Origin: Candidatus Kaiserbacteria bacterium RIFCSPHIGHO2_01_FULL_53_29
GTDB lineage: Bacteria > Patescibacteriota > Minisyncoccia > Phycocordibacterales > UBA2100
Length of the DNA stretch: 64,000 nt
NCBI GenBank assembly: GCA_001781125.1
Contig: MFKT01000001.1
Location: forward strand, 3,630-67,629
Reading direction: 5' to 3'
Position numbers and translations under genes: made by a program. This document shows, in pieces, positions 9,893 to 14,837 of this stretch (positions within the stretch are counted from its first letter, which is position 1; every line of letters begins with the position of its first letter). The notes under the pieces were generated by a model, which did not search any database, was not told the origin of the DNA, and worked only from the letters and a program-made list of their open reading frames with translations.

Positions 9893-10034
9893 ATATGCCC
9901 GGCAGGACAATTTCGAATTGCTTCTTATGAATAATCATCAGCGTATGACAGAAAACATCTATCTATCAGATTGCAAAGTATTCGCAGTTGAAACTGCAGC
10001 AGGAATTATTCGAAATTGTACTAGCCGGGTATGA
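9893..10034 (+). repeat. Copy A of the roughly 140-bp intergenic cassette (TIR plus nested uORFs) between rplW and rplB
   Basis: taTATG|CCCGGCAGGACAATTTCGAATTGC...GCAGGAATTATTCGAAATTGTACTAGCCGGG|TATGa. It contains an 11-aa ORF (MPGRTISNCFL) ending in ATGA and a 35-aa ORF (MNNHQRMTENIYLSDCKVFAVETAAGIIRNCTSRV) whose TGA overlaps the rplB ATG. Confidence 0.8.
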
Positions 10035-10873
10035 AAACATACAAACCAACATCGAAGTCCCAGCGTCAGCACACGAGCATTGAGTACCGCAAGCTTCTTT
10101 CGGGGCACAAGCCGGAGAAATCCCTTATGAAAGGTCGCCGCAGCTTCGGCGGGCGCAACTCATTTGGCCGAATCACGGTGCGCCATCAGGGCGGTGGGCA
10201 CAAGAAGACGTATCGGCAGGTGGATTTCAAATTCAATAAGAAAAATATCCCCGCGAAGGTCACTTCCATCGAGTACGACCCGTTCCGCTCCGGCTTCATC
10301 GGACTTGCCGTATATGCCGACGGGGAGAAGCGCTATTGTCTCGTGCCGCAGAAGGTGAAAGTGGGTGACACATTTCTTGTTTCCGAGAATGCTCCCGTAA
10401 CGCTCGCCAACCGATTGCCGCTGGGGAATATGCCAGTGGGAACATTCGTATACAACATCGAATTGAAGCCGGGCGAGGGCGCTGTCATCGCGCGTTCCGC
10501 GGGGAATTACTGCGAAGTCGTGGCACAAGATGCGGGCTACACGCACATCAAAATGCCCTCGACAGAAATACGCCGCGTCATCTCGACCGCGTGGGCGTCG
10601 GTGGGTGAAGTGTCCAACGAAGAGCATCGCTTGGTGAATCTCGGCAAAGCTGGCCGTAGCCGATGGCTAGGGCGTCGGCCGACTGTTCGCGGTACGGCAA
10701 TGAACCCGGTGGATCACCCGCACGGCGGAGGCGAAGGCAAGCAAGGTCGTGGTTCCCGCCGCCAGAAGACCATGTGGGGCAAACCTTCAGGCAAGGGCCA
10801 AAAGACGAGGCGGCCCAAGAAATATTCCAACGTCTTTATCGTCTCCCGCCGCAAAGTCGGGAAGAGGAAGTAA
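10031..10873 (+). CDS. rplB: 50S ribosomal protein L2
   Basis: ...NPVDHPHGGGEGKQGRGSRRQKTMWGKP... matches the L2 signature. Confidence 0.92.
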   Translation: MKTYKPTSKSQRQHTSIEYRKLLSGHKPEKSLMKGRRSFGGRNSFGRITVRHQGGGHKKTYRQVDFKFNKKNIPAKVTSIEYDPFRSGFIGLAVYADGEKRYCLVPQKVKVGDTFLVSENAPVTLANRLPLGNMPVGTFVYNIELKPGEGAVIARSAGNYCEVVAQDAGYTHIKMPSTEIRRVISTAWASVGEVSNEEHRLVNLGKAGRSRWLGRRPTVRGTAMNPVDHPHGGGEGKQGRGSRRQKTMWGKPSGKGQKTRRPKKYSNVFIVSRRKVGKRK

Positions 10874-10927
10874 ATTGTGCTGGCGTTGCGGTATTGACAC
10901 GAATACGCCTGTAGATACAATGTATCA

Positions 10928-11176
10928 ATGGCAACAAAAGTCCAAAAATGGGGGAATAGTCTCGCAGTCAGGATCCCCGACAATGTCGTTGAAGATGCCG
11001 GACTTGTTCCAGGAAAAGAAGTAACCGTCAGAAACGTCCGCAATACGGTCGTTATCACTCCGGTGAACGCAAAAAGGCGCCCGACACTCGAAGAACTCGT
11101 CGCTCGCATAACTCCCGAGAATCGGCACGACTATCAGTGGGGGGGAGTCGAGCCCGTTGGGAAGGAAATATGGTGA
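10928..11176 (+). CDS. mazE: MazE/PemI-like antitoxin (SpoVT/AbrB fold)
   Basis: MATKVQKWGNSLAVRIPDNVVEDAGL... has the canonical KWGNSxAVRIP motif. It is 82 aa and overlaps the downstream toxin start. Confidence 0.8.
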   Translation: MATKVQKWGNSLAVRIPDNVVEDAGLVPGKEVTVRNVRNTVVITPVNAKRRPTLEELVARITPENRHDYQWGGVEPVGKEIW

Positions 11177-11523
11177 AGGAAGGGTCACCACGCTATGTGC
11201 CAAATCGTGGAGATATTATATGGATCCAATTTTCACAGCGCAGAGGGCATGAGCAGGGTGGGCGAAGGCCAGCCATCATTCTTTCCTCGAAACAGTTCAG
11301 CGAACGTACTTCTTTTATATTCTGCTGTCCGATTACTTCAAAGGTGAAAGGATACGTTTTTGAAGTTCCCATAGCGGCCGGCCGAATACGAGGTGCGGTA
11401 CTTGCTGATCAAGCCTACACGTTTGACTGGCAGGCTCGTCGCCCAACATACGCGGCCCGCGCACCCGAAGCGGTCGTATCAAAGGTGGGTGAGTTGATCT
11501 CGATCCTCGCCCAAGGCGCATAG
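11170..11523 (+). CDS. mazF: MazF/PemK-like endoribonuclease toxin
   Basis: MVKEGSPRYVPNRGDIIWIQFSQRRGHEQGGRRPAIILSS... fits the PemK/MazF family. The ATG at 11170 overlaps the mazE stop (ATGgTGA). Confidence 0.8.
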   Translation: MVKEGSPRYVPNRGDIIWIQFSQRRGHEQGGRRPAIILSSKQFSERTSFIFCCPITSKVKGYVFEVPIAAGRIRGAVLADQAYTFDWQARRPTYAARAPEAVVSKVGELISILAQGA

Positions 11524-11596
11524 TCCCACTTTCTAAGCCAAACCTACAGGCAAAAGATTTGACTTATCAAGTCATTTCCTATACATTATGCGGACT

Positions 11597-11619
11597 CCCG
11601 CGAAGGCGGGTTTAATTTT
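11597..11619 (+). terminator. Rho-independent terminator after mazF
   Basis: CCCGCGAAGGCGGG hairpin followed by TTTAATTTT. Confidence 0.55.
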
Positions 11620-11668
11620 GACTTGTATTCACTAACACCTAGAACCTAGTCCCTAGCACCTAGTTCAT

Positions 11669-12016
11669 ATGACACGCTCGCTCAAAAAAGGTCCCTACGT
11701 GGACGCGAAGTTGATGAAGAAAGTATCTCTGCGTAAAGCCACGCAGGGGTCTATTAAGACGTGGGCGCGCAGCTCGCAGATCGCACCGGAATTCGTCGGC
11801 TACACGTTTGCGGTGCACAACGGCAAAAGCTTCGAAGAGGTATATGTCTCCGAAGACATGGTCGGGCACCGGTTGGGTGAATTCTCACCGACGACCAAAT
11901 TCATCAAGCACGGCGGAAAGATGCAGAAAGAGACCGAGATGGCGGCCAAGGCCGCGGAAATCGCAGCGGCAACAGCAGCCAAGGCGACTACCACGACGAC
12001 CGCCGCAAAGAAATAA
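11669..12016 (+). CDS. rpsS: 30S ribosomal protein S19 (with an Ala/Thr/Lys-rich C-terminal extension)
   Basis: [19 protein letters not shown]...[37 protein letters not shown] matches S19. Confidence 0.9.
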
Positions 12017-13319: not shown

Positions 13320-13372
13320 TTGCATTTGAATTTACTATTCCCTAGCACCTATTCCCTAAAACCTAACTCTTT

Positions 13373-13795
13373 ATGTTGGCACCGAAAAAAGCGAAATACC
13401 GCAAATGGCAAACGGGCCGCAGGCGCGGAGCGCGTCTGGTGAAGCCGGAGACCCGGGGCATCACGGTCGCATTTGGCCAATTTGGATTGAAAGCGCTCAC
13501 ACAAGCACGCGTCACGTCCAATCAACTTGAAGCCGCGCGTCGCGCGCTTTCGCGCGCAGGCGGGAAATCCGCCAAGATCTGGACACGCATCTTTCCCGAC
13601 AGGCCGTTCACGCAAAAGGCTGCCGAAGTGGGCATGGGAAGCGGTAAGGGCGATGTCGCGGGTTACGTGTTCGAAGTGCGTCCGGGCCGGATTCTCTTCG
13701 AGATCGATGGCGCACCAGAGCAACAGGCCCGCGAGGCACTCCGCAAAGCTGGCACAAAATTGCCGCTCAAGGCTCGTGTCGTCGGGCGCGATTAG
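13373..13795 (+). CDS. rplP: 50S ribosomal protein L16
   Basis: MLAPKKAKYRKWQTGRRRG...MGSGKGDVAGYVFEVRPGRILFEI matches L16. Confidence 0.9.
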   Translation: MLAPKKAKYRKWQTGRRRGARLVKPETRGITVAFGQFGLKALTQARVTSNQLEAARRALSRAGGKSAKIWTRIFPDRPFTQKAAEVGMGSGKGDVAGYVFEVRPGRILFEIDGAPEQQAREALRKAGTKLPLKARVVGRD

Positions 13796-13825
13796 TTCGA
13801 CCACCGCATCACTCTAAATAAATTT

Positions 13826-14014
13826 ATGGATGATTTTTCAAAACAAGACATTGCGGAATTGCAGAAGCTCGTCGCTGACAAGCGCGAAGCATTGCGCGTA
13901 TTCCGATTTGGGGCAGAGGGTAGCCGCTCGCGCAATGTGCGCGAAGGGCGGACATTGCGCAAAGATATCGCACGCTTGCTCACTGAAGTCAGGAAGCGTA
14001 GTATCGCACAATAA
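13826..14014 (+). CDS. rpmC: 50S ribosomal protein L29
   Basis: A 62-aa helical protein of the right size and position between L16 and S17. Confidence 0.8.
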   Translation: MDDFSKQDIAELQKLVADKREALRVFRFGAEGSRSRNVREGRTLRKDIARLLTEVRKRSIAQ

Positions 14015-14016
14015 GT

Positions 14017-14292
14017 ATGGACGAAACTGAACAAAATGTTGGTAAAACGTTCGATGGCGTTGTCGTAAAGACGGCGATGAAAGACACGGCAAGCGTGCTG
14101 GTGGAACGCTATGTGAAGCATCCGAAATACAAAAAGTACATGCGCAAGAGTCAGAAGTTCCTCGTGCACGATCCGGGCAATACCGCTCAAGTCGGAGAGG
14201 AAGTTGTCATTCGCGAAACCCGTCCGATCTCCAAGCGCAAGCGCTTCATCCTCGTCTCCCGTATTTCCCCTTCGCTACAAGCTACAAGCTAA
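14017..14292 (+). CDS. rpsQ: 30S ribosomal protein S17
   Basis: ...GVVVKTAMKDTASVLVERYVKHPKYKKYMRKSQKFLVHD... matches S17. Confidence 0.88.
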   Translation: MDETEQNVGKTFDGVVVKTAMKDTASVLVERYVKHPKYKKYMRKSQKFLVHDPGNTAQVGEEVVIRETRPISKRKRFILVSRISPSLQATS

Positions 14293-14312
14293 CGGCTACA
14301 AGCTTTTTCTTT

Positions 14313-14693
14313 ATGATCCAAGACAGAACCCTTGTGAAAATTGCAGACAATTCCGGCGGCATCATCGGCCGGGTCTTCAAGATATTGGGCGGCTCGAAGC
14401 GCCGCTACGCTGGTATCGGCGACGAGATCGTCATCTCCATCCAGACCGCGCAGCCACGCAAATCGGTGAAGAAGAAAGAAGTGCACCGCGCCGTCGTCGT
14501 GCGTCAGACCAAAGCCTTTCGGCGGGCCGACGGCTCATACGTGCGTTTTGATGAAAATGCCGTCGTTCTTATCGCCGGATCGGGCAAAGAGCCCAGGGAG
14601 CCGAAAGCCAATCGTGTCTTCGGTCCTATCCCGCGTGAGGTCGTTGAGCGCGGATATCAGCGCATCGGCTCGCTCGCGCCGGAGATTGTATAA
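14313..14693 (+). CDS. rplN: 50S ribosomal protein L14
   Basis: MIQDRTLVKIADNSGG...AVVVRQTKAFRRADGSYVRFDENAVVLI matches L14. Confidence 0.9.
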   Translation: MIQDRTLVKIADNSGGIIGRVFKILGGSKRRYAGIGDEIVISIQTAQPRKSVKKKEVHRAVVVRQTKAFRRADGSYVRFDENAVVLIAGSGKEPREPKANRVFGPIPREVVERGYQRIGSLAPEIV

Positions 14694-14837
14694 ATGTATG
14701 CCCGGCAGGACAATTTCGAATTGCCTTATATGAATATTCACCAGCGTATGAAAGAAAAACTAACTAACGGGCTTTGCAAAGTGTTCGCAGTTGAAACTGC
14801 GGCAGGAATTATTCGAAATTGTACTAGCCGGGTATGA
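14694..14837 (+). repeat. Copy C of the roughly 140-bp cassette between rplN and rplX
   Basis: The same architecture as copies A and B. uORFs MPGRTISNCLI and MNIHQRMKEKLTNGLCKVFAVETAAGIIRNCTSRV have ATGA overlaps into rplX. Confidence 0.8.

Follow-up and report, generated by a model that had tools for sequence, protein, structure and literature searches.

Four cassettes abut start codons

We analysed a window of 64,000 nucleotides from Candidatus Kaiserbacteria bacterium RIFCSPHIGHO2_01_FULL_53_29 (contig MFKT01000001.1, positions 3,630 to 67,629 of the forward strand), in which four closely similar cassettes each stand directly before a gene: rplB, rplV and rplX among the ribosomal-protein genes, and a gene encoding a PG_binding_1 protein (Table 1). 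All four have the layout ATG-CCCGG…CCGGGT-ATG with the host gene directly behind, and the genes upstream of copies 1–4 encode L23, S19, L14 and a PKD/cupredoxin protein, respectively. An initial annotation of this DNA had located the same four plus-strand copies, with left ends that took in 2–5 flanking bases, and had named the right-hand ATG as the start codon of the downstream gene, which is the case for L2, L22, L24 and the PG_binding_1 protein alike. RplB of the window shows 100% identity to its counterpart in Candidatus Kaiserbacteria bacterium RIFCSPLOWO2_12_FULL_53_8, and L2 homologues of 280–282 aa have the same N terminus.

The distance from ATG to ATG is 136, 136, 136 and 137 nt in copies 1–4. 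The two arms of each cassette, 21–22 nt long, pair with each other, which gives a terminal stem about 24 bp long; in copy 4 a C–G pair of this stem is replaced by U–A, a compensatory change. Arm patterns (27 nt for the left and 32 nt for the right, with at most three mismatches) matched four times each in the window, against none expected from 100 shuffles, and the cassettes fold with minimum free energies of −42 to −47 kcal/mol (z = −3.2 to −6.0). An Rfam scan of the entire window at the gathering threshold returned only tmRNA and tRNA, and the cassettes had no family match.

Table 1 Coordinates of the four cassettes, their parts and their host genes in the window
Feature	Position	Strand	Remarks
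Copy 1, cassette	9895–10033	+	left (duplicated) ATG 9895–9897; rplB start ATG 10031–10033; first ATG to final TGA 9895–10034
Copy 1, arms	9898–9918 (left); 10008–10029 (right)	+	T at 10030
Copy 1, ORF1	9895–9930	+	MPGRTISNCFL; begins 2 nt past the rplW stop
Copy 1, ORF2	9927–10034	+	35 aa, ending IIRNCTSRV; TGA overlaps rplB ATG (ATGA)
rplB (L2)	10031–10873	+	host gene of copy 1; starts at its right-hand ATG
Copy 2, cassette	12020–12158	+	left ATG 12020–12022; rplV start 12156–12158; first ATG to final TGA 12020–12159
Copy 2, arms	12023–12043; 12133–12154	+	
Copy 2, ORF1	12020–12055	+	
Copy 2, ORF2	12052–12159	+	
rplV (L22)	12156–12599	+	host gene of copy 2
Copy 3, cassette	14698–14836	+	left ATG 14698–14700; rplX start 14834–14836; first ATG to final TGA 14698–14837
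Copy 3, arms	14701–14721; 14811–14832	+	
Copy 3, ORF1	14698–14733	+	
Copy 3, ORF2	14730–14837	+	
rplX (L24)	14834–15145	+	host gene of copy 3
Copy 4, cassette	52729–52868	+	left ATG 52729–52731; host start 52866–52868
Copy 4, arms	52732–52752; 52843–52864	+	compensatory T/A pair
Copy 4, merged ORF	52729–52869	+	46 aa; first ATG to final TGA
PG_binding_1 protein gene	52866–53717	+	host gene of copy 4; N terminus resembles a signal peptide

Related copies in Patescibacteria

A wider search for copies, as proposed in the initial annotation, was made by scanning species-representative genomes with the exact pattern ACAATTTCGAA-N75-105-TTCGAAATTGT, so that all counts are lower bounds. The scan returned 64 loci, about 58 of them genuine copies, in 21 assemblies with at most 8 copies per assembly; including the window the total is 62. 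Nearly all of these assemblies belong to Ca. Kaiserbacteria or other Patescibacteria. The canonical form is NATG-CCCGGYAGGACAATTTCGAAT…ATTCGAAATTGTACTRRCCGGG-T-ATG. Orientation relative to the ATG flanks is the same (sense) in 60 of the 62 copies, and nearly all directly adjoin a downstream open reading frame (ORF) of at least 90 aa. The host genes are functionally unrelated: L2, L22, L24, rnc, glycosyltransferases, a helicase and others. A left-arm scan of viral contigs gave no matches.

One base pair of the arms covaries perfectly across the copies (UA in 40, CG in 21, broken in none), and RNAalifold, applied to the interiors, found no consensus structure outside the arms. We considered a GCAG…CTGC hairpin beside the right arm as a defining part of the cassette, and discarded it as a subfamily trait that occurs in about 39% of copies versus 21% of shuffles.

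Evidence for insertion and ATG duplication

Orthologous junctions were compared in relatives whose RplB is 83–92% identical. The rpsS–rplV junction is empty at locus L065, which reads gaaataaTATGaaagca where the window has gaaataaTCTATG-cassette-TATGaaagcc; the empty site itself is taaTATGaaa. The rplN–rplX and rplW–rplB junctions are empty at L066 and L068, and in close relatives the ribosomal-protein junctions are either empty or hold unrelated inserts. The initial annotation had taken the cassettes for multicopy, non-autonomous insertions of the kind known as MITEs (miniature inverted-repeat transposable elements), with terminal inverted repeats (TIRs) and a target duplication, and had looked to orthologous empty sites for confirmation; the pairing arms, the 62 copies and the empty sites bear this out.

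The same observations bear on a quite different reading, in which the cassette is a conserved, non-mobile host RNA leader acting in cis, for instance in ribosomal-protein autoregulation, as a thermosensor or as an RNase III site. The very stable terminal hairpin, which includes both AUGs, would suit such a role, as would the three copies in the ribosomal-protein operon and a longer copy that precedes rnc (described below). However, orthologous junctions are empty or differently occupied, near-identical copies sit at unrelated loci before unrelated genes, and the interior is variable with no consensus structure past the arms. Together with the lack of an Rfam match, these features make an RNA leader very improbable.

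Copies with variant flanks can carry the same variant on both sides (TTTG/TTTG, TACG/TACG, GATG/GATG, CATG/CATG and, inverted, CATA/CATA), and about 15 copies have mismatched flanks such as GTG/ATG or CATG/TATG. Over the 62 copies the base before the left ATG is T in 46 (74%), C in 14 (23%) and G in 2, which mirrors the −1 base of native start codons in these genomes (T 48–67%, C 22–31%), whereas the right flank is T-ATG in 57 copies (92%). Because the left −1 base follows the native context and the right T is nearly constant, the duplicated unit is ATG, not TA or a strict TATG, and we rejected a strict 4-bp TATG duplication on the same grounds. The TATG described earlier on both sides of the cassettes thus holds for the four window copies and gives way, across the 62, to NATG on the left and T-ATG on the right.

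In genome MFKV01 three copies have interiors that are 96–99% identical and flanks that are unrelated (random-level similarity), and we therefore read them as recently mobile. Matched variant flanks, together with such near-identical copies at unrelated loci, show insertion with duplication of ATG. Precise excision would leave TATG or TATGTATG as a footprint.

The copies at TTG and ACG sites, two in number, lack both a host gene and an intact chain of reading frames of the kind described below. A further copy (L026:432-590) has CATA/CATA flanks, which is TATG on the opposite strand, and ends 8 nt short of the start of a DEAD-box helicase gene; the reading-frame chain of this copy is broken, and it appears to be an off-target insertion whose orientation is opposite to that of its target. 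The TTG, ACG and CATA copies look like off-target insertions and show an intrinsic preference for ATG-like targets.

Start sites without Shine–Dalgarno motifs

Genes of the window have no Shine–Dalgarno motif. In many of them a TATAAT-like box, often CACTATAAAT, stands 5–9 nt ahead of the ATG, and leaderless mRNAs are thereby implied; others begin −4 to 10 nt relative to the stop of the upstream gene. The same two contexts recur at the left ATG of the cassettes. Thirty-one of the 58 gene-associated copies lie within 13 nt after the stop of an upstream ORF; among the remaining 27, a TANNNT box 4–11 nt before the left ATG is present in 14 (background 6.5%) and a Shine–Dalgarno-like motif in one. 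Neither a Shine–Dalgarno motif nor a promoter was found between the arms and the host ATG, and the right arm has no Shine–Dalgarno motif. These features suggest that Kaiserbacteria rely on leaderless initiation and on termination–reinitiation rather than on Shine–Dalgarno pairing. A genome without 5′ untranslated regions (UTRs) would offer few neutral insertion sites, and an insert that keeps the original context of the ATG and hands ribosomes on at the native coupling distance would be among the few kinds tolerated, which would explain the orientation bias.

Two further kinds of start-site motif were seen. The motif TTCGAC-N7-8-(C)TCACTATAAAT, followed by an ATG 5–7 nt later, occurs at window positions 18316–18345 and 19778–19807 and at the L066 and L068 junctions, and is probably a promoter for leaderless mRNAs that is also used inside ribosomal-protein operons. 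Short, CTAG-rich repeated spacers (ACCTAGAACCTAGTCCCTAGCACCTAG…) lie at 11633–11668 and 12590–12617, just upstream of the rpsS and rpsC starts, and a similar repeated motif, CTACAAGCT, precedes rplN (14273–14312). Within the spacer before rpsS, each of the three frames meets a TAG stop shortly ahead of the ATG; such spacers may be a device that clears ribosomes before reinitiation.

A conserved chain of reading frames

In copies 1–3 the left ATG opens an 11-codon ORF (MPGRTISNC…), which is followed by a 35-codon ORF (…IIRNCTSRV) and then by the host start. Both junctions are ATGA overlaps, the first of them in copy 1 being that of the ORF1 TGA with the ORF2 ATG. In copy 4 one additional base merges the two ORFs into one, which still terminates in ATGA. 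In each of the four copies such a chain links the left ATG with that of the host gene, and would therefore deliver to the latter a ribosome that starts at the former; we refer to this arrangement as a relay. The internal ORFs were not part of the initial annotation, nor were the leaderless or coupled translation context and the nuclease-encoding parent described below.

Over all copies the ATG–ATG distance ranges from 133 to 141 nt, mostly not a multiple of three, and interiors are very variable. The relay is nevertheless intact, with one ORF or two ATGA-overlapping ORFs from the left ATG to an endpoint, in 50 of the 58 gene-associated copies. The endpoint is either a TGA that overlaps the host ATG (gap −4 nt; 17 copies) or a TAG, TAA or TGA in the right arm that is in frame with the host gene and precedes its ATG by 5–6 nt (34 of 62). 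A variable dinucleotide in the right arm always yields one of these three stops in the host frame, and the third, stop-free frame is confined to the two copies that lack a host gene. Dinucleotide-shuffled interiors gave 15.0 ± 3.2 intact relays (maximum 25 in 300 trials) and interiors exchanged among copies gave 39.1 ± 2.1 (maximum 46), while an indel of ±1 nt left the relay intact in 9 of 58. Arrival in the frame that requires an A after the host ATG tracks the +4 base of the host gene (17/1 versus 2/32, Fisher P = 1.3e-10), although the copies share ancestry, so that P values for relay and frame overstate their independence, which tempers the case for the relay.

An ordinary MITE could also come to lie on start codons through a TATG preference in a gene-dense genome, with incidental small ORFs and a host gene that is translated independently. 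The ATG-like preference seen at the TTG, ACG and CATA sites fits this account, as do the common ancestry of the copies and the fact that 38% of the off-frames across the same span are open by chance. It sits poorly with the excess of intact relays over shuffled and frameshifted controls, with the varied lengths and layouts that all arrive, with the match between arrival frame and host +4 base, with the invariable host-frame stop in the right arm, with the orientation bias and with the lack of a Shine–Dalgarno motif or promoter ahead of the host ATG, and we regard it as improbable. Since many lengths and ORF layouts arrive correctly despite the kinship of the copies, the relay appears to have been selected repeatedly, and its conservation shows, as judged from the copies compared, selection for keeping the host gene translated. 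The initial annotation had offered target preference combined with selection, or else a functional leader role; the off-target copies speak for the former and the conserved relay for the latter, and it is the exclusivity of the choice that falls.

It is still less probable that the cassettes are genes for small functional proteins of 35–46 aa. Most copies do have open ORFs, with recurring motifs such as MNIHQRM, but the C-terminal half is read in two frames (…IIRNCTxRV versus …NYSKLY), interiors differ by 1–2 nt in length and can barely be aligned, and the conserved residues are those encoded by the arms. We rejected a functional peptide because the same DNA is read in two frames.

With the element inverted, its ORF stops at once (ATG CCC GGT TAG). 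The left ends at L015, L048 and L051 have an additional A after the left ATG (TATG-A-CCCGG), which makes the ends perfectly symmetric (ACCCGG…CCGGGT); in a T-type arm this additional A gives an immediate stop (ATG ACC CGG TAG).

A GIY-YIG gene with the same arms

At L038, 3 kb from a miniature copy, identical arms about 300 nt apart enclose a 93-aa ORF that runs from the left ATG and encodes a GIY-YIG domain (Pfam PF01541, 62.7 bits versus a cutoff of 22.6). Full-length copies with the same arms are present at L038, L069, L079 and L080, so that the fuller element with matching arms anticipated in the initial annotation does exist, as a GIY-YIG-coding copy. At L079 the ATG follows an upstream stop by 1 nt, and a 345-aa host ORF follows the nuclease stop by 6 nt; at L080 the stop is 6 nt before a 652-aa ORF, and at L069 the element lies between a nusB–NUDIX gene and rnc. 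The first approximately 8 codons of the nuclease gene (MPGRTISN) and the last 6 or so (NNSKLY and the stop) are the two arms themselves, read in the frame that stops 6 nt before the host ATG.

A database search returned at least 55 related proteins of 93–110 aa, nearly all beginning MPGRTISN(R)FYYVYVL… and many ending …RNNSKLY. Scanning metagenomes by protein alignment gave 80 loci, of which about 32, and about 9 more in decayed form, have inverted repeats of 20–27 bp. In the approximately 32 loci the left repeat begins at the ATG and the right one ends in CNGGG(T)ATG of the next ORF, that is, ATG-CCCNG…CNGGG(T)-ATG. The arms form families with compensatory changes (CCCGGY/RCCGGG, CCCCGT/ACGGGG, CCCAGT/ACTGGG, TTCGCA/TGCGAA and TTGGAA/TTCCAA), and in a neighbour-joining tree all arm-bearing proteins make up one clade; arms and nuclease protein have evidently co-diversified.

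Conserved motifs are Y-x-Y…Y-I-G, R and E, with Y14, Y25, G27, R35, E59 and E71 invariant. An AlphaFold (AF2) model has a pLDDT of 85.5, with a confident core and low-confidence tails where the arms encode the protein. Foldseek placed Slx1 (top) and UPF0213 BH0048 ahead of I-TevI and UvrC, and the relative 1ZG2 was found at E = 2e-10. By these features the partner is a bona fide GIY-YIG protein, Slx1/UPF0213-like and 93–99 aa long, with predicted nuclease activity.

Repeats were also seen around 'ordinary' UPF0213-like GIY-YIG genes outside the start-codon clade, which are bracketed by a 13-bp inverted repeat, TTYACCCNGTNAR … YTNACNGGGTRAA. Its left half, TT(T/C)ACCCNGTNA(A/G), lies 8–28 nt upstream of the ATG, and its right half (TTAACAGGGTAA) encodes the conserved C terminus LTG with the stop codon. 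These repeats show compensatory variants, and their scores fall at the 99th percentile of the null obtained by shuffling; the loci are the ORF flanks at L110, L113, L114, L129, L134, L138, L139, L145 and L159, and L040:330-640. The whole UPF0213-like family may be TIR-bounded, and the branch may be mobile.

A candidate start-codon element

We interpret the cassettes as non-autonomous, MITE-like derivatives of an approximately 300-bp GIY-YIG element that sit on start codons and relay ribosomes to the host gene, a reading to which we assign a probability of roughly 70%. It builds on the anatomy, distribution and insertion polymorphism of the cassettes, the duplication of ATG, the conserved ORFs and the arms held in common with the ends of the nuclease ORF, all of which can be read directly from the DNA. 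The full-length element consists of one ORF only and brings along neither a promoter nor a start codon. It would insert at an ATG-like site and duplicate the ATG, so that the left ATG retains the initiation context of the host, as a leaderless 5′-terminal AUG or 1–6 nt past an upstream stop, and opens the element ORF, while the right ATG restores the host gene. Ribosomes would traverse the element, terminate on the host ATG (ATGA) or 6 nt upstream in frame, and reinitiate on the host gene. Miniature copies would have lost the nuclease and kept an open relay of one or two overlapping ORFs. Survival only in sense, and exactly on start codons, would follow from keeping this relay in a dense genome without 5′ UTRs or Shine–Dalgarno sites. 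We infer that the nuclease mobilises full-length and miniature copies alike; as a guess only, this Slx1-like enzyme might cut at the base of the arm hairpin or of a cruciform.

Several observations weigh against this interpretation. The window itself holds no full-length, nuclease-coding copy, and the census of copies was built on an exact-match pattern. Eight of the 58 gene-associated copies have a broken relay and yet a long ORF downstream, two full-length copies have their stop 25 nt rather than 6 nt before the host ATG, and the terminal stem, at about 24 bp, would mask both AUGs should it fold ahead of ribosome loading. That the cassette ORFs are translated, that reinitiation feeds the host gene and that the relay is needed are steps that we infer from the reading frames. 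Similarity between miniature interiors and the nuclease gene is vestigial (mean local score 10.8 versus 10.05 for shuffles, clearest at L044), and on this ground we rejected the interiors as simple deletion derivatives of that gene. Finally, the nuclease is a bare 93-aa catalytic domain with no obvious separate function in DNA binding or strand transfer, and we know of no GIY-YIG enzyme that performs transposition.

The bare catalytic domain and the lack of a known GIY-YIG transposase also favour an alternative. Here the MITE family and its relay are real, the GIY-YIG gene travels as a passenger or comes from a homing-type nuclease that colonised the element, and the arms are moved by some other transposase or by host recombination or replication acting at the hairpin. 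The term GIY-YIG transposase is absent from the full-text literature that we searched, and MITE copies far outnumber full-length copies in our scans. Against a passenger stand the arms, which belong to the nuclease ORF itself and have diversified with the protein over many families through compensatory changes, the single clade of arm-bearing proteins, and the fact that neither viral contigs nor about 0.5 Mb of flanking DNA showed a further transposase-like ORF bearing these arms. On balance we hold this alternative to be unlikely. If the nuclease of the start-codon element does act as its transposase, the element may represent a new superfamily of minimal DNA transposons of about 300 bp, with an Slx1/UPF0213-like GIY-YIG transposase, duplication of the start codon and a relay, and UPF0213/YhbQ-like genes (repeats ACCCNGT…ACNGGGT) may be mobile in general; we offer this broader proposal tentatively, at somewhat less than even odds.

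Comparison with known systems

Among bacterial MITEs, the Correia elements of Neisseria are related to IS630 and duplicate TA. They are likewise about 140 bp long, multicopy and devoid of a transposase gene, with TIRs that give a long hairpin in transcripts, a short target duplication and presence/absence polymorphism between strains. Unlike them, the cassettes duplicate ATG rather than TA, lie exactly on start codons in one orientation, keep their internal ORFs as a relay and have a GIY-YIG nuclease rather than a DDE transposase as partner. The Tc1/mariner-like TA targeting put forward in the initial annotation does not hold: the flanks are NATG…TATG with a duplicated (T)ATG, the left flank is CATG in 14 of 62 copies, and no DDE gene with these arms was found, so that we rejected an IS630/Tc1-mariner assignment. 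Elements of the IS200/IS605 type (PATE) have a separate subterminal hairpin at each end, no TIRs, no duplication and an HUH TnpA. Insertion of this type, 3′ of a tetranucleotide, was rejected since the ends of the cassettes pair with each other and a duplication is present; no HUH gene, TnpA or TnpB was seen.

A homing endonuclease recognises a single cognate site, spreads to the allelic empty site and has an added DNA-binding domain, with no inverted repeats, target duplication or miniatures. GIY-YIG homing genes (the free-standing seg genes of phage T4; I-TevI-type intron endonucleases) resemble the element in being small selfish nuclease genes that are wedged between host genes and driven by host expression signals. 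The element differs in targeting dozens of unrelated genes, in its TIRs, duplication and miniatures, and in its bare domain, which is closer to Slx1/UPF0213 than to I-TevI; unrelated targets, TIRs, duplication and miniatures led us to rule out a classical free-standing homing endonuclease gene. UPF0213/YhbQ/Slx1-like (URI) proteins are relatives of the nuclease in sequence and fold, and the start-codon clade is set apart from UPF0213 by arm-encoded N- and C-terminal tails and by inverted repeats that abut host start codons. To our knowledge, no mobility has been ascribed to UPF0213 proteins.

Insertion of Rickettsia palindromic elements (RPEs) is in frame, and the repeat then forms a segment of the host protein. 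Like the cassettes, they are palindromic mobile repeats that are tolerated in essential genes through compatibility with translation; the cassettes, by contrast, lie outside the host ORF, are closed by stops and mostly span a distance that is not a multiple of three.

Termination–reinitiation coupling is described at ATGA or TGATG overlaps and at very short spacers (PMC6728339, PMC10666635). The cassettes share with it stop/start distances of −4 or +6 nt, the absence of Shine–Dalgarno motifs and tight junctions, and native junctions in the window have similar gaps; they differ from ordinary coupling in that the upstream 'gene' is a mobile insert whose sole apparent role, in the miniatures, is to hand on ribosomes. 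The full-text literature that we searched yielded no description of start-codon MITEs, of TIR-bearing GIY-YIG elements or of leaderless translation in Kaiserbacteria. We rate the start-codon GIY-YIG element as previously undescribed and categorically new; conservatively, it would be a MITE variant with a start-codon target and a relay.

Implications

If the steps proposed here are borne out, the enzymes behind transposon-like elements in prokaryotes would come to include a GIY-YIG nuclease, and an autonomous unit of about 300 bp would be the smallest autonomous mobile element known. Its parasitic strategy would be to do without expression signals of its own, capturing a host start codon and returning a duplicate to the host, with a translational relay that selection preserves even in dead miniature copies. 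Such a relay would explain how insertions are tolerated in essential ribosomal-protein operons. Annotation of candidate phyla radiation genomes may miss or miscall the cassettes together with their small ORFs, and the cassettes could serve as natural insulated coupling cassettes in the design of synthetic operons. A testable function is also suggested for the uncharacterised UPF0213/YhbQ family.

Other features of the ribosomal-protein operons

Other inserts occupy the same rplW–rplB and rplN–rplX junctions in relatives (L065:2241-2353, L067:6806-7000 and L067:10743-10874). The L065 insert is 113 nt long, with arms CCCGTTAGAAATTTACT/AGTAAATTTCTAACGGG and a 34-aa ORF that ends 4 nt before the rplB ATG. 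The two L067 inserts have a common tail, GGGTGTAAGTTRTTTCTAAACTCG…AAGAAAAACTAAC, and one spanning ORF each (62 and 40 aa), with the C terminus GCKLFLNSxTLxKKN and the ending TAA-C-ATG. Spanning ORFs of these other families thus end 1–4 nt before the host ATG, and translated-through inserts seem to be general in these operons.

Larger insertions were seen as well. In the window, a toxin–antitoxin pair is inserted at 10928–11523 in the S10 operon, between rplB and rpsS, the antitoxin being MazE-like (PF04014) and the toxin PemK/MazF-like (PF02452); the same place holds DUF5674, an acetyltransferase and an 868-aa PG-binding protein at L065, and an ABC ATPase at L068. Two ORFs of 89 and 103 aa on the minus strand (15687–16267) interrupt the spc operon region after rplE, where relatives have a methyltransferase or other small ORFs. 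Elsewhere, the window carries a tRNA-Ile with anticodon TAT (50233–50305) and a tmRNA gene on the minus strand (44039–44430).

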